64,000 bases of DNA from Candidatus Vogelbacteria bacterium RIFOXYD1_FULL_44_32 (GTDB lineage Bacteria > Patescibacteriota > Minisyncoccia > Phycocordibacterales > XYD1-FULL-46-19): assembly GCA_001823065.1 (NCBI GenBank), contig MHTJ01000004.1, forward strand, positions 37,839-101,838. The letters are read 5' to 3'. How positions within the stretch are numbered: position 1 is the first letter of the stretch; each line of letters starts with the position of its first letter. The notes below the pieces were generated by a model. The model did not search any database, had not been told where the DNA came from, and saw nothing but the letters and a program-made list of their open reading frames with translations. The position numbers and the translations under genes are program-made. Positions 950-37,595 of this stretch are shown piece by piece.

Positions 950-1190
950 AGGAGTTTTTGGTAAAAAACGACGAGACAGCTAGACTTGGATTTGAACGGG
1001 AAAGGGGTCGGGGAAACGGGAGTTTCCCCGTGGTGGAGGCAGCGAAGCGTTGGAACCGCAAGGTGCCAAAGCGCAGTCCGCTTTCGGGCGGACGAGCAGG
1101 GGAGGTTCCAAGTCCCGCAGCTTTGCACCGAAAAATCAGAAATAGGGCCTTCTCAGGGGCAGTGGTAACAGTTGGAAAGTTCGGGATTAT
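950..1190. ncRNA. Candidate structured non-coding RNA downstream of tRNA-Gln (unassigned family)
   Basis: A ~240 nt GC-rich stretch in an otherwise AT-rich intergenic region, with no consistent ORF on either strand. It has a perfect hairpin ggggaaac-GGGA-gtttcccc (GNRA loop), a hairpin gtccgc-tttcgg-gcggac and further paired segments. Strand and class are unknown. Confidence 0.3.
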
Positions 1191-1243
1191 TTGACGAAAA
1201 GAAGCTTTAAACAAAAATCAGAAGTAGTGCTAAACTATAGCCA

Positions 1244-1672
1244 ATGACCGAAGTCACTAAAAACCCGCGAGTGGGTGTGGGAGTATTTGTCTTTAAGAGT
1301 GGTAAGTTTTTAATGGGCAAGAGGTTGGGCTCGCATGGGGAGGGGAGCTGGTCAGTGCCGGGTGGGCATTTGGAATTTAGTGAATCTTTTGCCGACACAG
1401 CCAAACGAGAAGTGCTAGAAGAGACGGGCCTGAAAATAAAAAATATTAGATTTGGAGCCGTAACAAATGATTATTTTAAAGATGAAAATAAACATTATGT
1501 GACAGTGTGGATGGTCTCTGATTATGAAAGTGGCGAAGCCACTATATTAGAGCCAGACAAGTATGTAGAACAAGATTGGTTTGATTTTAATAATCTACCG
1601 GCACCTCTTTTTCTGCCATGGGAACAACTGCTAAAGTCGGAGTTTATAAATAATATAAGAAAGCAAAACTGA
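1244..1672 (+). CDS. NUDIX hydrolase
   Basis: Nudix box GGHLEFSESFADTAKREVLEETGL (Gx5Ex7REUxEExGU). The start codon lies 9 nt after a TGcTAAACT extended -10, so the mRNA is probably leaderless. Confidence 0.8.
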   Translation: MTEVTKNPRVGVGVFVFKSGKFLMGKRLGSHGEGSWSVPGGHLEFSESFADTAKREVLEETGLKIKNIRFGAVTNDYFKDENKHYVTVWMVSDYESGEATILEPDKYVEQDWFDFNNLPAPLFLPWEQLLKSEFINNIRKQN

Positions 1673-1704
1673 AATATATTACCTAGAAGTTTGTATTATG
1701 TATA

Positions 1705-2247
1705 TTGAAGAATAATATAAATTCAATATATTTTATGAAACCATATATTCCAGCGGTATTTATTTTAGGTTTAGTTTTGGTTTCCATTGGTGGTTTTGGT
1801 TATTATCAAAGTGTTAATTTGGCCACTAGTGACAATGGTGCCGAGGTGGTGGTAGCCGATAAGGGTGGCGATCAAACTCCTACCCCAGTGGTGGCAAAGC
1901 CCACTCCGGCACCAAAACCAGTATCCACTCCAGCGCCGACCCCAAAACTTGTGCCTACACCGGTCCCAACTCCAACCCCCGTGGTTCCTGCTCCTATTCC
2001 TACCCCAACTCCTACCCCGTCTGGCTACACTTTAGCTGATGTTTCTATTCACGGTGGTCGTGGCTCTTGCTGGACAGCAATAAATGGTCAGGTTTATGAT
2101 ATTACTAGTTATATCAATCAGCACCCGGGTGGCTCGGCTATTTTGCGGGGGTGTGGGGTCGATGGTACCCATCTCTTTAATGGGGTCGGGGCGCATCGTG
2201 GAACAATTGGTCAGCTTTCTTCATATATTATCGGTAATTTGATTTGA
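1705..2247 (+). CDS. Membrane-anchored cytochrome b5-like heme-binding domain protein with Pro/Thr-rich linker
   Basis: N-terminal transmembrane helix, PTPxP low-complexity linker and a C-terminal b5-like domain with the HPGG motif (VYDITSYINQHPGGSAIL). Confidence 0.65.
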   Translation: MKNNINSIYFMKPYIPAVFILGLVLVSIGGFGYYQSVNLATSDNGAEVVVADKGGDQTPTPVVAKPTPAPKPVSTPAPTPKLVPTPVPTPTPVVPAPIPTPTPTPSGYTLADVSIHGGRGSCWTAINGQVYDITSYINQHPGGSAILRGCGVDGTHLFNGVGAHRGTIGQLSSYIIGNLI

Positions 2248-3539
2248 TGAATAAGACGGTTTTGTATTTAGTGTTAGTTGTAAATTTTATTGTGACTGGT
2301 TTTTTCTGGTGGGCGGGTTCTAGTGAATTGTTTGGTTTGGGTGGCGAGGGGGCACTTAAAGCCTTCGGTCGACTATTTGGTTTAATTGGTCAACTGCTAA
2401 TTTTGTTAGAGTTGGCTTTGGTCAGCCGTGTTCCCTTTATTGAAAAAGCAATCAGTCTCGATCGACGGGTCCAGCTCCACCGCTTTGTGGGTTATGGTAT
2501 TTTGTCGGCCTTTCTGATGCATCCACTTTTACTATCTTTTGGTTATGATGGTGGGGCGGGGGCGACGAACCAGTTTGTGAGTTTTATTTTAAATTGGGAA
2601 GATATTTTTAATGCCTTGGTGGCATTGGTAATTTTTATTTTTGTCATCATTATTTCCATCCCAGTGGTCCGGCGGAAGTTGCGCTACGACACTTGGTATT
2701 TTATGCATCTTCTGATGTATGTTGCTTTGTTTTTGTCATTTGGTCACCAAACTAAATCAGGCGACTTGGTGGCTGGTCCAGCTTTGTATTATTGGCTTGG
2801 TTTAAACTTCGCTGTTATTGGTTTGTTTTTAGCTTACCGGCTATTGCATCCAATTTATCTTTATTATCAACATCGTTTTGTGGTCGATGAAGTGGTGGCC
2901 GAGGGGCCAAATATTTGTTCGGTTTATATTAAAGGGCAAAATTTAGCCAGTTTTAAATATGAAGCAGGGCAATTTGCCAGCCTTATTTTTCTAGCGCGCG
3001 GACTGTGGTATCACCACCCGTTTTCTTTTTCTTTGCCCCCAGGCGGGGACCGTCTCCGTTTTACCATGAAGGCGCTGGGTGATTTTACAGTTCAAGCCGA
3101 TAAACTAAAACCGGGGACTAAAGTGTTGATTGATGGTCCGTTTGGCCACTTCACCACTATTTTTGGCTATAATACTAAATATTTACTAGTGGCTGGGGGG
3201 ATTGGGATTACCCCGATTCGTTCGCTCTTAGAAAAATTAAGGAAACAAAATAAAGATGTAAAATTTATTTACGGTGCTAAAACCGAGGCGGAGTTGGCAT
3301 TAAAATCAGAAATAGATCAGTTGGGGGCCAGTGGTGAATATGTTTTGTCGCAAGAAAAGAAAACTGGTTTTGGCGAGGGGATTATTGATTTACCTAAAAT
3401 TAAAAATTTAGCCCCCGATTTTCTGGAGCGAGATATTTATATTTGTGGGCCACACCTGATGACCAAAAACTTGCGTCAGAGTTTGGCCCTAGCTGGTGTG
3501 CCTAAAAATCAGATTCACTTTGAGGAGTTTAGTTTTTAG
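2244..3539 (+). CDS. Ferric-reductase/NOX-like transmembrane heme + FAD/NAD(P)-binding oxidoreductase
   Basis: Six-helix transmembrane N-terminus with conserved His residues. FAD-binding HPFSFS motif and NAD-binding LLVAGGIGITP. The start overlaps the upstream stop (ATGA), implying an operon with the b5 gene. Confidence 0.7.
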   Translation: MMNKTVLYLVLVVNFIVTGFFWWAGSSELFGLGGEGALKAFGRLFGLIGQLLILLELALVSRVPFIEKAISLDRRVQLHRFVGYGILSAFLMHPLLLSFGYDGGAGATNQFVSFILNWEDIFNALVALVIFIFVIIISIPVVRRKLRYDTWYFMHLLMYVALFLSFGHQTKSGDLVAGPALYYWLGLNFAVIGLFLAYRLLHPIYLYYQHRFVVDEVVAEGPNICSVYIKGQNLASFKYEAGQFASLIFLARGLWYHHPFSFSLPPGGDRLRFTMKALGDFTVQADKLKPGTKVLIDGPFGHFTTIFGYNTKYLLVAGGIGITPIRSLLEKLRKQNKDVKFIYGAKTEAELALKSEIDQLGASGEYVLSQEKKTGFGEGIIDLPKIKNLAPDFLERDIYICGPHLMTKNLRQSLALAGVPKNQIHFEEFSF

Positions 3540-3604
3540 GTGGCTCTAAATATAGTTGAAGTTGCTATTTTGACGATGGTCTTTAGGTGTGTTATACTTG
3601 GCAG

Positions 3605-5113
3605 ATGACCGAAATTCCCATCAAAATCTTAAAAGAACGTTTGGTGGAGATTTCTCACCTTACTTCTATTCTCAATCTCCTCGAGTGGGATCAAGAAGTA
3701 AATATGCCCCGCAAAGCCGGTGACGCGCGCGCCGAGGCCTTTGCTCACCTGGCGGGGATTATTCACAGTAAAATCCTTGCTTTAAACGAGGGGGGACATT
3801 TGGTCCAGCTTAAAAAATTATTTGATAGCGGAAAAATTAGTGGTGGTAATGGGGTAATTGTGAACGAAACTTGGCGGACCTATGACCGTGAAAAAAAGTT
3901 GCCGGCCAGTTTTGTGCAGGAACTAGCGACAACTATTTCCAAAGCCCAAGGGGTATGGGCTGAAGCCCGTACCAAAAATGATTTTGCAATTTTTCTACCT
4001 CATCTTGAAAAAATAGTGAAACTGAAAAAACAAGAAGCCGAGCTGGTGGGCTATACCGCTTCACCTTATGATGCCCTGCTCGATGCCTACGAGCCAGGGA
4101 TAGACACCGCGACGTTTTCAGCAATATTGTTGGACCTTAAAGAGTTTCTGGTACCATTTTTGAAGCGGATTAAAGAGTCGACGGTAAAAATAAAACCCGA
4201 GCGGGTGAAAGGGCGGTTTAAACTGCATCAGCAAATTATATTTAATGAATTAGTGTTAAATCAAATTGGTTTTGATTTAGAAGCGGGCCGGCTCGATGCC
4301 AGTGTACACCCCTTTTCGAGTGGTTTTCATCCGTATGACGTGCGCCTCACCACTCGGTATAAAGAAAATGATGTTTTGTATTCTTTGGGCTCGACTATTC
4401 ATGAAGCGGGGCACGGTTTGTATGAGCAGGGCTTGCCGGTGGAACACTTTGGCACACCGCTGGCCGAGACAGTGTCGCTTGGTATTCACGAATCGCAGTC
4501 ACGCTTGTGGGAAAATCAGATTGGTAAGAGTCGGCCGTTTTGGAAATTTTTTTATCCGAAATTACAACAGGCTTTCTCTAAACCGTTTCAGAATATTTTA
4601 CCAGCTGAATTTTATCAGATTATCAATCGGGTTCAGCCGTCACTTATTCGCACCGAGGCCGACGAGGTGACTTATAATCTGCATATTATTTTACGGTTTG
4701 AAATTGAAAAAGATTTAATTGAAGGCAAGATCAAAGCCAAAGATTTGCCGGCGCTTTGGCGAGCTAAAATGAAAGAATATTTAGATATTGAGGTCCCGTC
4801 CGATACTTTAGGTGTTTTACAAGATGTGCACTGGTCAGCTGGGTTGTTTGGCTACTTTCCGACCTATAGTTTTGGCAATTTATACGCGGCGCAGTTTTAT
4901 GCCAAAATGGAGAAAGACATTCCTAACTTAGACCGTAAAATCGCCATCGGCGATTTTACGGTGGTCATCGAGTGGCTCCGGCGCCATATTCACCTGACCG
5001 GCAAAACTGACACCGCTAGTGACTTGGTCAAAAAAGTGACCGGCGAGGCCCTTGATCCCAAATATTTCAACCAATATTTAGAAGAAAAATATAGTGAGAT
5101 TTATAATCTTTAA
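3605..5113 (+). CDS. Carboxypeptidase Taq-like M32 metallopeptidase
   Basis: HESQSRLWEN and HEAGHGLYE (HExxH) motifs characteristic of family M32. The start is taken at MTEIP, 7 nt after a TATACT box. Confidence 0.8.
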   Translation: MTEIPIKILKERLVEISHLTSILNLLEWDQEVNMPRKAGDARAEAFAHLAGIIHSKILALNEGGHLVQLKKLFDSGKISGGNGVIVNETWRTYDREKKLPASFVQELATTISKAQGVWAEARTKNDFAIFLPHLEKIVKLKKQEAELVGYTASPYDALLDAYEPGIDTATFSAILLDLKEFLVPFLKRIKESTVKIKPERVKGRFKLHQQIIFNELVLNQIGFDLEAGRLDASVHPFSSGFHPYDVRLTTRYKENDVLYSLGSTIHEAGHGLYEQGLPVEHFGTPLAETVSLGIHESQSRLWENQIGKSRPFWKFFYPKLQQAFSKPFQNILPAEFYQIINRVQPSLIRTEADEVTYNLHIILRFEIEKDLIEGKIKAKDLPALWRAKMKEYLDIEVPSDTLGVLQDVHWSAGLFGYFPTYSFGNLYAAQFYAKMEKDIPNLDRKIAIGDFTVVIEWLRRHIHLTGKTDTASDLVKKVTGEALDPKYFNQYLEEKYSEIYNL

Positions 5114-8811: not shown

Positions 8812-10956
8812 ATGAAGAAGAGTCTGTCGTCGCTGGCCACCCTGGTGGCATTTGTTACAGTTTTGTCGGGTTGTGTCGGGGGGTGTTGCGTGGCTTTCGT
8901 GTCGTGGACAGACGAGTTCACAGATGATGCCGGCCGCATCCTCTTTCCAGTGCAGGTGGACGAAGTCCAGGGTCAAGGTGGCAACACCATGGCCCAGGAG
9001 TCGGCCGAAGTTCGGCTCATGAGGGTCGATTCACAAGGACGTGCCTTTGAGGTGGCGTCCAAAGTGGATGTGACCTTTGGGTCGCTCGGAGATGTTGAGG
9101 CCTACCCGATTTACTCGGGTGCCAAAGGTGCCAAAGATCTCCTGCCGTATGGCTACGTCACTCCTGGTGGCGTGGTCATGCAGAATTTTGGCATCGGCGG
9201 ACACGCCGTGCCGGCGATGTCTGGACAATTCCAGATTGTGAGCTGGGCGAGCGTTGTGCAGGAACACCCAGGTGCCTTTATCGGCGCCGCGTTGGTTTTA
9301 CTAACAGATGTTGAGTTGGTCCGCCCCGATTTTGGCGGACGGCTTTCCGTCTTGTTTACGATCAGCCAGCCTGGGGATTACTTGATTGAGGTTGATGGTT
9401 TTGCCAGCCCGATTTTGGGGGGTAGAGTCATTAGCTTTCTTACTTGCAACTTCTCTTGGACCTCGGAGGTGTTCACCCTGAACCCGCCGGGAATTGAGCC
9501 AGATCGTGATGGCGATGGTGTGCCGGACAGCGAAGATAACTGTCCAGCCACTTGGAATCCTGATCAACAAGATTCCGACCATGACGGTATTGGTGACGCG
9601 TGTGAACGTGACACCGACGGTGACGGCATTTCCGATGATGAGGACAACTGTCCTTTCATCTCCAATCCAAATCAGCTTGATACAGATGGAGATGGTGTTG
9701 GGGATGTTTGTGATAATTCTTCTGGTGAAGGTGAAGGTGAAGGTGAAGGTGAAGGTGAAGGTGAAGGTGAAGGTGAAGGTGAAGGTGAAGGTGAAGGTGA
9801 AGGTGAAGGTGAAGGTGAAGAACTCACGCTCGACTTGTCGATTAAAGAAGGTGGCAACACTTTCGAAGTCGGCGAAGATTTCACGTTGAAGCTTGATATT
9901 GACGGGGCGACAGAGCCTTACAATGTCACATTGCGTGGAACTGGGGCGGAGTTCGTCGCCTTTCGTTTTGAAGACGGTGTCATAACCGTCACGGACCGAA
10001 TCTTGGCCAACGACGTCATCGGCGAGCCAGTGCTTGTTGGTAGCAATATCGAATTGAATTACTTGCCAAAGGTGACGACTGGCGGTGAGTTTGCTTCGAT
10101 TGAGGCCCAGGTAACGGATGCCCAAAGCAACCAAGCCCAGGACTCAGTTGATGTCAAAGTCGTCGTGGCGACCGGTATCGTTCCCAATGTCATCGACCTC
10201 CCTCAACAAGAAGGAGGGGATGATGTCGAAGGAGCCGGTTTTGTAGTTGGTACAATCACGACCCGTTGCAGTGACACCATTGCCGCTGGCCGGATTATCG
10301 ACTACAACCCCAAGGGTGTTCAGCCTTTGGGCACCGCCATTAATCTGGTGGTTTCCACCGGGCCCTGTGGACCGGAGATGACCACCGTGCCCAACGTGGT
10401 TGGTGACTTACTGGTGAATGCGGATGCCGAAATCACTGGTGCCAACCTCGAGGTCGGTAATGTGACGGAAGTCTTCAGTACCGCACCAGTCGGGCAGGTG
10501 ACAATCCAAAGTCCTGTCGGTGGGACGCAAGTGCCCGTCGGTAGTGCGGTGAACCTCACTGTTTCGAAAGGTGAGGAACCGGTGCCTGGGCCATTGGCGC
10601 TAGTTGTTACTTCGGCCGACGAAGATTTTCCCAATAGTTACCAAACTAACGGGACGATGACGTTCAGGGCCAAGATCAACGGCGACGTGCCCGCTCCGTA
10701 TACCGTGCGGTTCCGTGGGTTGCAGAGTGATCAAATTACCGTCACTCTCAATGTCGATGGGTCGGTGACGTTTGTCAGCCGTTCTGGCGGGGCGACGATC
10801 ACCTACGACAGACATCCTTCCGACCCCCGGTCGGTGATGTTTTCCCAGATGATCTTGTTTTCGACGCAGGGTCAGCCAGCTGGTCTCTACTTCCAAGCCG
10901 AGGCAGGCGGGCAAACCGCTGATGTTGGAAACATCTCCGTCGTCGTGACGGATTAG
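8812..10956 (+). CDS. Surface lipoprotein with thrombospondin-type-3-like Ca-binding repeats, (Gly-Glu)16 tract and PASTA/Ig-like C-terminal domains
   Basis: Lipobox signal [21 protein letters not shown] and an AGGAGG SD. Repeated DxDxDGxxDxxDNCP motifs, a (GE)16 tract, and VPNVVGDLL...-type repeats. Confidence 0.75.
9724..9819 (+). repeat. Perfect (GGTGAA)16 hexanucleotide microsatellite inside the lipoprotein gene
   Basis: Read directly as ggtgaa x16; it encodes (GE)16 in frame. Confidence 0.95.
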
Positions 10957-14307: not shown

Positions 14308-14841
14308 ATGATAATAAAGGAAGAAGGAATAATAAAAGATGGTAAGATTATAGTCCAAATAGGTAAGGGTTTGGGTGCTAGGTCTTTGGAATTTTGCTTT
14401 ACTGATTTTTTTAGTAGTATTAGTTTCCTTAAGGAACAAGAAAAAACCCCAGTCAAATCTGACGGTCTTCGCGCTGGGAGTTGGTTTTTTAAATCAAAAA
14501 TGTATATTGTTTCTGGGCAGACACCATATAGTGATGAAGAGATTAAACTGAGAATTAAACATTTTGTTATTAAAAAGGAAAAAGAACTCACTAAAATTTC
14601 AAAAGAAGTTGAGGCCTTTGAAAATTTTGACCAAGCACGGAGTGCCAGAAGAGGAAGAATTCCAGATGATGTACGATTATTTGTATGGCAAAGGGATGAG
14701 GGTAAGTGTATAAAATGTGGTACAAAAGAAAAATTAGAATTTGATCATATAATACCGGTCGTTGCTGGGGGAGCAAATACACAAAGAAACATTCAACTTT
14801 TGTGCGAATTGTGCAATAGAACTAAAGGTAAAAATATCTAA
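14308..14841 (+). CDS. HNH endonuclease domain protein (AT-rich, probably acquired)
   Basis: C-terminal HNH motif CIKCGTKEKLEFDHIIPVVAGGANTQRNIQLLCELCN. GC content is visibly lower than in the neighbouring genes. Confidence 0.7.
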   Translation: MIIKEEGIIKDGKIIVQIGKGLGARSLEFCFTDFFSSISFLKEQEKTPVKSDGLRAGSWFFKSKMYIVSGQTPYSDEEIKLRIKHFVIKKEKELTKISKEVEAFENFDQARSARRGRIPDDVRLFVWQRDEGKCIKCGTKEKLEFDHIIPVVAGGANTQRNIQLLCELCNRTKGKNI

Positions 14842-35576: not shown

Positions 35577-37595
35577 ATGCCATTAAAGGAAGATAAATAT
35601 AAGCTCTACTTGGCTTCTGGCATCCGCCTGTGGACGCTATTTTTCAAAGATGGTTATTCCCCTTATTTCAATAAAAAAGTTTCCCTGTTTGAACCGGCGC
35701 TCATAGACAATCAGTACACCGGTGAGCATCGCAAAATACCGATCAAAATTGCGACTAAGGACTTGGGTGAGATAAACAAATGCGATGCGGTGTTAGCCTA
35801 TATGAAAATGTACGATACCCAAGGCAATGGGCCAACGGGTACCGACAGCTCTTGGGAATGTGGTTATGCTATTGGGCAGGAAAAACCGACTATTATGCTG
35901 GTGGAAGATTTGGAACACCTCGACTATTACACATCCCAGTGGATGGTGACTTTTAGTATTGGTGCCATTTTAACTACAGATAAAGAGGTGGCGGAAAGTG
36001 CCCGGCACAGTGATAAGTTTACCCATACCGCCATTTTACTCTGCGAAAACAAAGAGCAGTTTGAAGACAAAATTATAGAGTATTTAGACAAATACTACCG
36101 CTCTATCTATGCACGTGAAGGCGAGATAAACTATTCCGTTGACCAGGAAATTAGAAAGTATGTCGACGAGAAAAATTTGCAGGAGTTTTTTGAGGAGTGC
36201 CAGAGTGGTATACCAGTTGAAGATAAACCCACCACTTGGTATTACGACAAAAAAACTAAATATAATGACCCCACCACCTATCTGGCGGTCTGCACGTCCG
36301 AGGTGGAGCGGGCCGGGCGTCTGGAAAACATAATTGAAAATAATTTTAACGACTTGCCACAGGTCCTTAAAAGTGAAATCGGACAGTTGCTGGAGCAGAT
36401 GGAAAATGACGGAGCCAGTCACGTGGCCGAGATGGCAAGCTACTGGCTTAATATTCCAGCGGCCAAGGTTAAAGACCGCCGGCAGGGCAAGAAAAAAACT
36501 CGCCCAACTATTTTTTATGAGTTATTTGATTTGGTCAGCCACCACATTGTCGCTTCGGAAAGATATTTTGAAGCAGATTTTGTTTATAAAGCCGGAGCAG
36601 TAATTGAAATATATAATTGGCTAAATACCTATGCCATAGATGATGTGTTTGACAGTTCGGCCACTAGGCAGGGTGAGTCGACACTGCATGAAAAATATGG
36701 CAGCCGGCGCAATGCTCTTCTGGTGGGAGGTATTGGCCATTGTCTTGCTCTTTATTTACTGTACGAGTTGACCAAAAAACAACCGGAAGCAGCCAAGGAC
36801 CTGCTTTCGAGCTTAAACAATGTTCAGAAACTAATGTATCTGGGGCAACCTCACGACATTGCTCTCACTTTTGACAGTCGTTGGCAATTAAAATCTTTTA
36901 TAAAAAAGAATAGTTTAGATACGGCCTTACAGCTTTATTTTAAAAGAATATACGGCATTTGCGGGGCGTTTTACGAGGAGATTGGTCGGATGGCGATGAA
37001 GGCGACCAATGTTGGTGCACAATTTTATGATCAAGAGGAAGTCGAGGAAGCCTGTGTTTCCATTGCGCGGCAATTTGGCTTAGTGCAGATGATTCGCAAC
37101 GATCTCGGCGATTTTATTACGGCGGCAGATATGCCGGGGATGAGCAAGGGGATGAAAGATACCTCTCATAACGACATCGCCGAAGGCAAGCTAACACTAC
37201 CTGTCATCTATACACTATTTAGTCCAGAGGTGTCGACGCGCGATAAAAAAATAGTTATCCGGGCACTTGGTAATCGACGACTGAAAGATTCGGCACGAGC
37301 GGAAATCAGTCGAATCATCTGGGAAAGTGGGGCGATAGAATTTTCCCTGCAGTTTATCGACTACTATGTGCGGGCGGTGCGAAGACAATATGTGCGCCAT
37401 ATTAACGAGACGCCGACCCGTTTGAAATGGATTTTGAAGCTGATGGATATTACCCCGCTCATTGATATTTCTTTTCGGCGGGTGGCTTTGGACAGAAAGT
37501 GGCGCAAACTAGAGCCCTTGCCTTTTTCGGACGACATGGTCGGTGAGTTGGATAAACTGGCCGAGAGGGGTAATTTTTTGGAATCACGGAAGTAA
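35577..37595 (+). CDS. Fusion protein: N-terminal nucleoside 2-deoxyribosyltransferase/LOG-like domain + C-terminal trans-isoprenyl-diphosphate-synthase-like domain
   Basis: N-terminus YKLYLASGI...DLGEINKCDAVLAYMKMYD...GTDSSWECGYAIGQEKPTIML matches the NDT motif DxxLGxYIPDEEDxGxxxELGYAxxxGK, including the catalytic Glu. C-terminus has an FARM-like AIDDVFD...RRN, a SARM-like VQMIRNDLGDF and GKxxxxDIAEGKLTLPVIY. Confidence 0.7.
   Translation: MPLKEDKYKLYLASGIRLWTLFFKDGYSPYFNKKVSLFEPALIDNQYTGEHRKIPIKIATKDLGEINKCDAVLAYMKMYDTQGNGPTGTDSSWECGYAIGQEKPTIMLVEDLEHLDYYTSQWMVTFSIGAILTTDKEVAESARHSDKFTHTAILLCENKEQFEDKIIEYLDKYYRSIYAREGEINYSVDQEIRKYVDEKNLQEFFEECQSGIPVEDKPTTWYYDKKTKYNDPTTYLAVCTSEVERAGRLENIIENNFNDLPQVLKSEIGQLLEQMENDGASHVAEMASYWLNIPAAKVKDRRQGKKKTRPTIFYELFDLVSHHIVASERYFEADFVYKAGAVIEIYNWLNTYAIDDVFDSSATRQGESTLHEKYGSRRNALLVGGIGHCLALYLLYELTKKQPEAAKDLLSSLNNVQKLMYLGQPHDIALTFDSRWQLKSFIKKNSLDTALQLYFKRIYGICGAFYEEIGRMAMKATNVGAQFYDQEEVEEACVSIARQFGLVQMIRNDLGDFITAADMPGMSKGMKDTSHNDIAEGKLTLPVIYTLFSPEVSTRDKKIVIRALGNRRLKDSARAEISRIIWESGAIEFSLQFIDYYVRAVRRQYVRHINETPTRLKWILKLMDITPLIDISFRRVALDRKWRKLEPLPFSDDMVGELDKLAERGNFLESRK

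Follow-up and report, generated by a model that had tools for sequence, protein, structure and literature searches.

A tethered cytochrome b5 gene abutting a SpNOX-type flavocytochrome gene in Candidatus Vogelbacteria: a probable two-component electron-export system

Where does a bacterial relative of the NADPH oxidases (NOX) send its electrons when the gene that abuts its own encodes a membrane-tethered cytochrome b5? The question is raised by two neighbouring genes, here gene 1 (the b5) and gene 2 (the flavocytochrome), in a 64,000-nucleotide stretch of the genome of Candidatus Vogelbacteria bacterium RIFOXYD1_FULL_44_32 (this whole stretch is called the window, and positions without a locus number are counted from its first letter). 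An earlier note on this DNA had taken the pair for a trans-membrane conduit from NAD(P)H to an extracytoplasmic haem protein and had guessed the organism to be like those of the candidate phyla radiation (CPR). The guess was correct, as the gene 2 product is 100% identical to the database protein of that CPR bacterium. The conduit is supported by inference from 12 coupled pairs in three clades and from the extracytoplasmic carriers that occupy the same slot elsewhere, and we think it probable that the two genes form a two-component NAD(P)H-driven electron-export system. Coordinates of all features are given in Table 1.

The two proteins and their predicted topology

The pair corresponds to two open reading frames (ORFs) in the ORF list, 1705..2247 (+) and 2244..3539 (+). 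The first is open from a TTG at 1705, and the ATG at 1735 is the preferred start because the close homologues P0121 and P0122 begin MKPY/MTKPY. The earlier note's statement that gene 2 overlaps gene 1 stands, but its "ATGA" does not: the junction reads TGATG with one nucleotide shared (the A of the TGA), and a four-base overlap results only if the alternative gene 2 start, TTG 2244, serves. The one-nucleotide overlap, i.e. translational coupling, fits co-production of both proteins. Both genes are real rather than chance ORFs, since gene 2 has an identical database entry and each has many homologues, about 48 that bear a Cyt-b5 domain annotation for gene 1 and at least 1000 at E ≤ 0.001 for gene 2 (the best 120 span 1e-97 to 1e-286).

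Gene 1 has the three parts that had been seen in it, an N-terminal anchor, a Pro/Thr-rich linker and a b5 domain with HPGG, all found by Pfam, hydropathy and AlphaFold (mean pLDDT 80.4, and above 90 over most of the b5 domain). Hydropathy peaks at residues 4-22 and the modelled anchor helix runs from residue 5 to 31, with one Lys ahead of it and no Lys or Arg in the 15 residues past it. The 67 residues from 31 to 97 include 20 Pro, 12 Thr and 10 Val; the linker has no secondary structure in the model (pLDDT block means of 47-85, below 50 at residues 39-49) and occurs in gene 1 homologues too, but its sequence is not conserved. The b5 domain matches Pfam Cyt-b5 with E 2.7e-17 (residues 109-179 of the long ORF), and its model resembles rat cytochrome b5 4hil (TM-score 0.83, root mean square deviation 1.5 Å) and 1cxy (TM 0.80). 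The latter, cytochrome b558 of Ectothiorhodospira vacuolata, also comes first in the PDB for the profile of the b5 family (1CXY, E 1.1e-22); a disulfide and a signal peptide set it apart from eukaryotic b5, and it is presumed to be periplasmic (PMC8877833). Among 29 homologues C112, W113, H130-P-G-G, C140 and G141 never vary, and C112 and C140 are matched in the alignment by the two Cys of 1CXY. A second His stands 12-14 residues past C140 in 29/29 homologues (one, with an insertion, has it at 19-21); in a pairwise alignment to b5, H154 is shifted by one residue. Gene 1 thus has both axial His of a b5, that of the HPGG and a second about 24 residues on, and in the scheme of Tamarit et al. counts as a classical b5 of clade 2. 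Judged by these alignments, the domain is of the b558 type, a periplasmic b5 of bacteria with disulfide cysteines, and would bind haem b at the predicted bis-His site.

The b5 domain is predicted to sit outside the cell, where the earlier note had placed it, and the membrane anchor is present. This prediction follows from the positive-inside rule applied to the anchor helix, from the alignment of the invariant Cys pair with the disulfide Cys of periplasmic b558, and from the N-termini of the gammaproteobacterial partners (below), which read as cleavable Sec signal peptides.

Gene 2 was likewise described correctly as a ferric-reductase transmembrane domain followed by HPFSFS and GGIGITP motifs. 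Pfam finds Ferric_reduct (E 7.9e-15), then FAD_binding_8 and NAD_binding_1 (FAD, flavin adenine dinucleotide); among PDB sequences the closest is that of SpNOX 8qt6 (E 1.9e-19 over query residues 57-430 in the phmmer alignment), and the AlphaFold model (pLDDT 85.8, pTM 0.78) has SpNOX as its best fold match (TM 0.70-0.75), with human NOX2 and DUOX1 next. Six long helices lie within residues 3-209 of the model, in agreement with hydropathy, Lys/Arg distribution and Pfam order, so that the protein has the six helices plus cytoplasmic dehydrogenase of bacterial NOX and of long-form ferric-reductase-domain (FRD) proteins (Hajjar 2017; Zhang 2013). Its predicted topology is that of SpNOX: N terminus and dehydrogenase inside, Lys/Arg-rich loops 55-79 and 141-150 cytoplasmic, and three short outer loops with few or no Lys/Arg.

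The four bis-haem His on which the case depends are present: H78, H92, H154 and H167 do not vary among 28 homologues and correspond in the alignment to H69, H83, H129 and H142 of SpNOX, respectively. H78 and H92 are 13 apart and H154 and H167 are 12 apart, which is NOX spacing and agrees with the published His-X12/14-His pattern of helices 3 and 5. Short bacterial FRD forms do not keep all four His, whereas long forms do (Zhang et al. 2013). In the SpNOX structure H69/H129 bind the inner haem and H83/H142 the outer (PMC11564096), and the haem assignment in Table 1 is taken from it. The published NADPH motif of bacterial NOX is found as GIGITP (residues 318-323). The published FAD filter H[PSA]F[TS][LIMV] is matched by HPFSF in its first four positions and missed in the fifth, a Phe; despite this miss, Pfam FAD_binding_8 scores above its cut-off and the homology is clear.

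Recurrence of the pair and other carriers in its place

Is the adjacency of the two genes peculiar to this window? Relatives of gene 2 in species-representative genomes and in metagenomes gave 160 loci, collected with no regard to the neighbouring genes; 112 of them contain the transmembrane domain and constitute an unselected NOX-like set, for which 1.09 Mb was fetched (loci are numbered with the prefix L). The b5 profile found five genes in this 1.09 Mb, all five of them immediate same-strand neighbours of the NOX-like gene and none elsewhere. Seen from the b5 side, 2 of 8 more distant b5 relatives adjoin a NOX-like gene, as do both of the closer relatives P0121 and P0136, which were chosen with NOX-like matches in view. 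With the window and further look-ups, the total is 12 b5/NOX-like pairs, always on the same strand and with junctions of -4 to +22 nucleotides.

In a rough neighbour-joining tree, made from the window protein and 104 further NOX-like proteins, the 12 pairs fall into three NOX-like clades with two gene orders. The b5 gene is upstream in the window's own clade (the window, L173, L174 and L082); it is downstream in a gammaproteobacterial clade (L062, L073, L171 from Kineobactrum salinum and L172 from Marinimicrobium sp. C6131) and, as an anchored b5, in a second CPR clade (L035, L066, L166 and L170). Three of the four gammaproteobacterial pairs have an ATGA overlap and two are from cultured strains with complete genomes; their b5 proteins are, by eye, roughly half identical to b558. 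The window NOX-like protein is 33-38% identical to flavin mononucleotide (FMN)-linked proteins of Chloroflexi and Actinobacteria and 27-31% to the other b5-linked proteins, and these figures, together with the two gene orders, indicate that the b5 link arose, or was exchanged, more than once. Within clades the pairing persists at 40-87% protein identity while the flanking genes change.

What occupies the place of the b5 in the other loci? When the genes abutting NOX-like genes were clustered and then annotated, FMN_bind and/or ApbE genes were found to adjoin the NOX-like gene in 39 of the 112 loci, against 5 for b5, so the earlier note was right to call b5 an unusual partner. A monohaem cytochrome c with a signal peptide fills the slot in four actinobacterial loci, and an anchored cupredoxin in one (L083:3364-3990, upstream of and abutting the NOX-like L083:3986-5320). 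The carrier loci span L002-L025 and L085-L159 (e.g. L002:5269-5775, L005:5187-6485 and L025:5223-5774), and the type of carrier tracks NOX-like subclades; in the tree, the clade of the window protein is sister to the FMN systems called MsrQ-like. Flavinylated FMN domains, c-type cytochromes and cupredoxins work outside the cytoplasm, and the presence of such extracytoplasmic proteins in the same slot is independent support both for the outside location of the b5 and for its role as acceptor.

The cupredoxin is built like the window b5, with a helix, an Asn/Gln/Pro/Thr linker and a redox domain that has a type-1 copper ligand pattern. We do not use L083 as a clean example of a carrier swap, as its NOX-like gene has an in-frame TAA (Glu in homologues) and YGP for CGP; it may be decaying or a pseudogene, or mis-sequenced, and is counted as a weak example.

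Some further relatives have unusual arrangements. In a Saccharibacteria locus (L066:5128-6261) the downstream partner of the NOX-like gene encodes an anchored protein with two tandem b5 domains, a Thr/Pro-rich stretch and an extra C-terminal domain. Anchored b5 relatives that have no NOX-like neighbour were seen at L161:4001-4900, L165:4001-4987, L163:2663-4881 and L167:2686-4927; a DoxX membrane protein follows the b5 in two of these loci, and the other two have the order ECF-sigma (extracytoplasmic function) / unknown / b5 / DUF2214-like. As a module, the tethered b5 seems to take several small membrane redox proteins as partners. A LAGLIDADG endonuclease gene and about 870 nucleotides of short scattered ORFs precede the NOX-like gene of the closest metagenomic relative that lacks a b5 (L081:2535-3995); rRNA genes with introns are common in CPR, and this upstream stretch could be one of them. 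No other carrier was found near the closest relatives without an adjacent b5 (L081 and L001), and the L001 neighbour has no Pfam match.

The proposed electron path and its competitors

The path that we propose is as follows: NAD(P)H would dock on the cytoplasmic C-terminal domain of the gene 2 product (GGIGITP, CGP and the gating Phe428) and reduce FAD held at the HPFS motif; the electron would pass from FAD to the inner haem (His78/His154) and then to the outer haem (His92/His167), which would lie at the external face beneath outer loops that are very short. The gene 1 product, a predicted bis-His, disulfide-bearing b558-type cytochrome b5, would be the dedicated acceptor. Kept outside the membrane by its single N-terminal helix and flexible linker of about 65 Pro/Thr-rich residues, it would bind at the exposed outer haem, accept a single electron from it and move that electron off the membrane surface. 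We infer haem and FAD occupancy, outer haem to b5 transfer and the direction of flow from the motifs, the models and the linkage. The inferred conduit fits what has been found with SpNOX, whose outer haem is solvent-exposed and which reduces cytochrome c directly and anaerobically, and whose authors propose that a protein acceptor potentially exists and that O2 is possibly not physiological (PMC11564096).

To what would the b5 deliver its electron? Fe(III) or other metal chelates, reduced for uptake, are our first but tentative choice. A metal connection is hinted at by a ZIP transporter, a Fur-family regulator and YibE/F beside one relative of the pair (L174:939-5920), by a CDF cation-efflux protein directly upstream of a second (L082:2606-5284) and by YibE/F directly upstream of a third (L035:2757-5550), as well as by the link of the sister FMN systems to VIT1. 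For those MsrQ-like systems, of which 1437 clusters with a PF01794 plus PF00175 protein have been counted (Meheust et al. 2021, eLife, PMC8238504), NAD(P)H is the proposed donor, extracytosolic flavoproteins are fed, and iron reduction is proposed where VIT1 adjoins (PMC8238504). Some surface protein or substrate comes second and is possible; disposal of reducing equivalents to external acceptors, which would regenerate NAD(P)+, is third and rather unlikely, and O2, the fourth candidate, is more doubtful again.

Several observations weigh against the conduit or its proposed use. No metal transporter adjoins the pair in the window, and an upstream scan for a Fur box gave at best 11/19 matches, a score that is reached at 320 window positions and so is no evidence for iron regulation of the pair. 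Among the NOX-like loci 107 of 112 have no b5, including L081 inside the window's own clade. Nor is b5 exclusive to a NOX-like partner: six other b5 relatives adjoin DoxX (two), an ECF sigma factor plus a DUF2214-like membrane protein (two) or stand in other contexts (two). The tree has no support values, the predicted topology of the window b5 hangs on a single Lys, and the conduit roles of all b5-linked pairs are read from sequence. The b5 domain has a net charge of zero, unlike the acidic eukaryotic b5, and offers no obvious electrostatic docking surface; the outer loops of the gene 2 product are slightly acidic. Finally, CPR bacteria are generally not known to synthesise haem, so that haem loading would rely on scavenging.

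Might gene 2 encode a true NADPH oxidase, whose outer haem makes superoxide from O2, with the b5 as an accessory, a scavenger or an unrelated neighbour? It has all of the NOX cofactor motifs, and its closest solved relative SpNOX oxidises NAD(P)H with O2 and is described as a superoxide producer (PMC5676040, PMC11564096), but the SpNOX authors leave a physiological role of O2 in doubt and mutated the putative O2 site without effect (PMC11564096). The 12 translationally coupled b5 pairs and the swapping of carriers also point away from O2 and to a protein acceptor. Four residues past the outer-haem His of transmembrane helix 3, a position that we take to be that of the O2-site His in NOX2 and csNOX5, gene 2 has Leu96, and His never stands there in 28 aligned homologues. 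An oxidase is in our judgement improbable.

Somewhat less probable is that the b5 is a haem-capture protein or chaperone on a long tether, like the surface haem receptors of Gram-positive bacteria, and that the reductase frees the bound haem. CPR bacteria are generally thought to lack haem synthesis, yet the pair needs three haems, and the long Pro/Thr linker that tethers the domain recalls the build of surface capture proteins. For the Tyr-ligated cytb5MY of related CPR loci, Tamarit et al. speculate that reduction triggers the release of haem, but the window b5 is a classical bis-His (clade 2) protein with both axial His conserved. Moreover, free-living aerobic Gammaproteobacteria have this pair too, there with a b5 that is soluble and periplasmic, and the FMN, haem c and copper proteins that fill the slot elsewhere carry electrons, not haem. 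Bis-His classical b5 holds its haem tightly in both redox states, and Gammaproteobacteria as a group are expected to synthesise haem.

The least probable explanation, adjacency without function, in which the genes are independent and the flavocytochrome reduces a small-molecule acceptor directly, can appeal to the mere 5 of 112 NOX-like loci with a b5, to the other neighbours of b5 relatives and to the packing of genes on one strand with common overlaps in small CPR genomes (the window ORFs are mostly +), but it is very hard to reconcile with b5 genes that, in 1.09 Mb of unselected flanks, are immediate same-strand neighbours without exception, with a pairing kept within clades while the flanks change, and with its recurrence in distant clades, in reversed gene order and in another phylum. 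All three alternatives lose ground to a coupling that is tight and recurs across several clades, and to the carrier swapping, and electron export through the tethered b5 is the explanation we prefer.

Surroundings, known systems and meaning

Table 1. Positions of the pair, of its domains, motifs and predicted ligands in the window, and of the gammaproteobacterial pairs in their loci
Feature	Position	Strand	Basis or remark
Gene 1, membrane-tethered cytochrome b5, 170 aa	1735..2247	+	ORF list, Pfam, homologue starts, AlphaFold
Predicted N-terminal signal-anchor helix, ~residues 4-31, after short cytoplasmic MKP	1744..1827	+	hydropathy, AlphaFold
Pro/Thr-rich disordered linker, residues 32-97	1828..2025	+	composition, AlphaFold
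Cytochrome b5 haem-binding domain, residues 98-170	2026..2244	+	Pfam, alignment, AlphaFold
b5 Cys112	2068-2070	+	invariant in 29 homologues
b5 HPGG including His130	2122-2133	+	invariant in 29 homologues
b5 Cys140	2152-2154	+	invariant in 29 homologues
b5 His154, predicted place of second axial ligand	2194-2196	+	alignment
Gene junction, stop TGA 2245-2247 shares one base with ATG 2247-2249	2244..2249	+	sequence
Gene 2, SpNOX-type transmembrane flavocytochrome, 430 aa	2247..3539	+	Pfam, PDB sequence match, AlphaFold
Six-helix ferric-reductase domain, residues 1-209	2247..2873	+	Pfam, AlphaFold
Predicted inner-haem ligand His78	2478-2480	+	alignment to SpNOX
Predicted outer-haem ligand His92	2520-2522	+	alignment to SpNOX
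Predicted inner-haem ligand His154	2706-2708	+	alignment to SpNOX
Predicted outer-haem ligand His167	2745-2747	+	alignment to SpNOX
FAD-binding beta-barrel domain, ~residues 210-305	2874..3161	+	Pfam FAD_binding_8 residues 224-301
HPFSFS, residues 257-262	3015-3032	+	H257, P258, F259, S262 invariant (28 homologues)
NAD(P)H-binding domain, ~residues 310-430	3174..3536	+	Pfam NAD_binding_1 residues 315-410
GGIGITP, residues 317-323	3195-3215	+	G318, I319, G320, P323 invariant (28 homologues)
CGP, residues 400-402	3444-3452	+	C400, G401, P402 invariant (28 homologues)
C-terminal Phe428	3528-3530	+	invariant (28 homologues); aligns with SpNOX F397
Gammaproteobacterial pair	L062:118-1799		NOX-like then b5
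Gammaproteobacterial pair	L073:3845-5547		NOX-like then b5
Gammaproteobacterial pair, Kineobactrum salinum CP048711.1	L171:2706-4357		NOX-like then b5
Gammaproteobacterial pair, Marinimicrobium sp. C6131 CP110629.1	L172:2680-4369		NOX-like then b5

The pair lies in ordinary chromosome. The order around it is GATase-domain ORF, tRNA-Gln, NUDIX hydrolase, the pair, M32 carboxypeptidase and HI0933-like flavoprotein; within 10 kb are these same genes and those for an ABC-F ATPase, surface proteins, MurB and GatB, with no two-component system, and farther along follow GAPDH, RpiB, Rpe, GyrB and DnaE. The 64-kb window holds a single b5 gene and a single FRD gene by paralogue search. It has no credible cytochrome c (the lone CXXCH sits in a 120-aa minus-strand ORF), no FMN_bind or ApbE gene at E ≤ 0.01 (the profiles were made with 21 FMN_bind and 7 ApbE neighbours taken from related loci), and no Pfam match to a molybdoenzyme family among the 26 larger window ORFs scanned. 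A consensus scan of 1100-3800 gave 9 promoter-like sites (5.0 ± 2.0 expected) and no terminator-like site between the two genes; the promoter-like site at 1705-1732 is uninformative because transcription would start past the ATG at 1735.

Four other parts of the window were noted in passing. Between the tRNA-Gln and the NUDIX gene, 295 nucleotides (949-1243) have no credible ORF and contain several GC-rich hairpins; they have no Rfam match (best E 0.065, to an unrelated long non-coding RNA model) and a folding energy like that of shuffled sequences (z -0.6). A 714-aa protein (8812-10956) joins a thrombospondin type-3 repeat and a PASTA domain, a 672-aa protein (35577-37595) joins nucleoside 2-deoxyribosyltransferase-like and polyprenyl synthetase domains, and an HNH endonuclease gene (14308-14841) stands between gatB and the GAPDH gene.

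How does the pair compare with systems already described? SpNOX (PDB 8qq7, 8qt6) likewise joins a six-helix bis-haem part to the FAD- and NAD(P)H-binding parts in one chain, has short outer loops, and shares the four aligned His and the C-terminal gating Phe (window F428, SpNOX F397). It differs in sequence (about 22-23% identity over the fold alignment) and in its FAD motif (HPFSI, against HPFSF in the window), and the window protein has a dedicated, translationally coupled haem protein that is predicted to be extracytoplasmic. At the two Streptococcus loci covered, L077 and L079, searches with the profiles for b5, FMN_bind, ApbE and cytochrome c gave no match to a carrier within 4 kb. We found no later literature that names a b5 partner for bacterial NOX homologues.

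The closest precedent is in the CPR themselves. The earlier note had thought such a conduit unexpected in organisms of this kind, which is not so: Tamarit et al. (2021, bioRxiv 10.1101/2021.11.17.468889) found PF01794 in 1427 of 7645 CPR genomes, counted 185 with a PF00173 gene at ≤10 kb, and proposed a CPR-specific membrane complex. The window is a CPR sequence with the two families within that distance. Their pFre/cytb5 clusters differ in having a Tyr-ligated, MAPR-like cytb5MY, CBLA/CBLB, a two-component system and larger operons, whereas the window pair consists of just two genes, the minimal form, its b5 being a classical bis-His one of clade 2, and has none of cytb5MY, CBLA/CBLB and two-component system, the marks of the proposed ancestral state. 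They also remarked that the pairing is absent outside CPR, and here it was found in four Gammaproteobacteria.

The MsrQ-like flavinylation systems (PMC8238504) share with the window a PF01794 protein with C-terminal PF00175 and an extracytosolic carrier encoded next door; their carrier is an ApbE-flavinylated FMN-binding protein, that of the window a predicted non-covalent haem b protein, with no FMN_bind or apbE gene. In MsrPQ (E. coli YedYZ), too, a ferric-reductase-domain haem protein passes electrons to a periplasmic partner via an exposed outer haem cleft (PMC11564096), but MsrQ has no FAD/NAD domain and is fed by quinol or the flavin reductase Fre, and its partner MsrP is a molybdoenzyme and terminal reductase, not a carrier; the window protein has the dehydrogenase domain, and b5 is the sole adjoining carrier gene. 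E. vacuolata b558 (1CXY) shares the Cys pair, the extracytoplasmic location and a variable-length loop ahead of the second His with the window b5, but is soluble after signal-peptide cleavage, whereas the window protein would stay anchored by helix and long linker; no Ectothiorhodospira protein stood among the 120 matches listed in a search for its relatives. Eukaryotic NADH-cytochrome b5 reductase resembles gene 2 in being an FNR-family flavoprotein that reduces a membrane-tethered b5, but there both partners are on the cytosolic side and the b5 is tail-anchored by its C terminus, whereas the window electron would cross via two haems to a head-anchored b5 outside. Lastly, FRE/FRO proteins have the same FRD, FAD and NADPH architecture and export electrons to Fe(III), but by established knowledge they reduce metal chelates directly, with no separate carrier.

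Co-localisation in CPR is thus already published and this locus is a further case; the gain lies in context and testability rather than in discovery. The pairing extends beyond CPR, and external carriers of several kinds, b5 among them, are interchangeable. The predicted outside location of the b5 finds support in the cysteine pair. By its sequence, the gammaproteobacterial partner is of the b558 type, whose function has been unexplained since 1999, and the gammaproteobacterial pair suggests a redox partner for such proteins. A wider generalisation, which we regard as unlikely though worth stating, is that bacterial NOX homologues in general are not oxidases but NAD(P)H:protein transmembrane reductases with interchangeable one-electron carriers (b5, FMN, cytochrome c or cupredoxin), and that in the quinone-less, fermentative CPR a b5 on a 65-residue tether is the outlet of a minimal extracellular electron-transfer route that uses scavenged haem and regenerates NAD(P)+ via iron minerals, oxygen or the host surface.

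The pair ties together two questions, the acceptor of bacterial NOX homologues and the role of bacterial cytochrome b5, and the locus offers a co-encoded candidate for the protein acceptor that has been proposed for the former. In Kineobactrum salinum (CP048711.1) and Marinimicrobium sp. C6131 (CP110629.1) the pair is open to genetics and biochemistry in cultured strains. If the proposed electron export is true, CPR bacteria, which are thought to be without respiratory chains, would gain a rare cell-surface redox activity.

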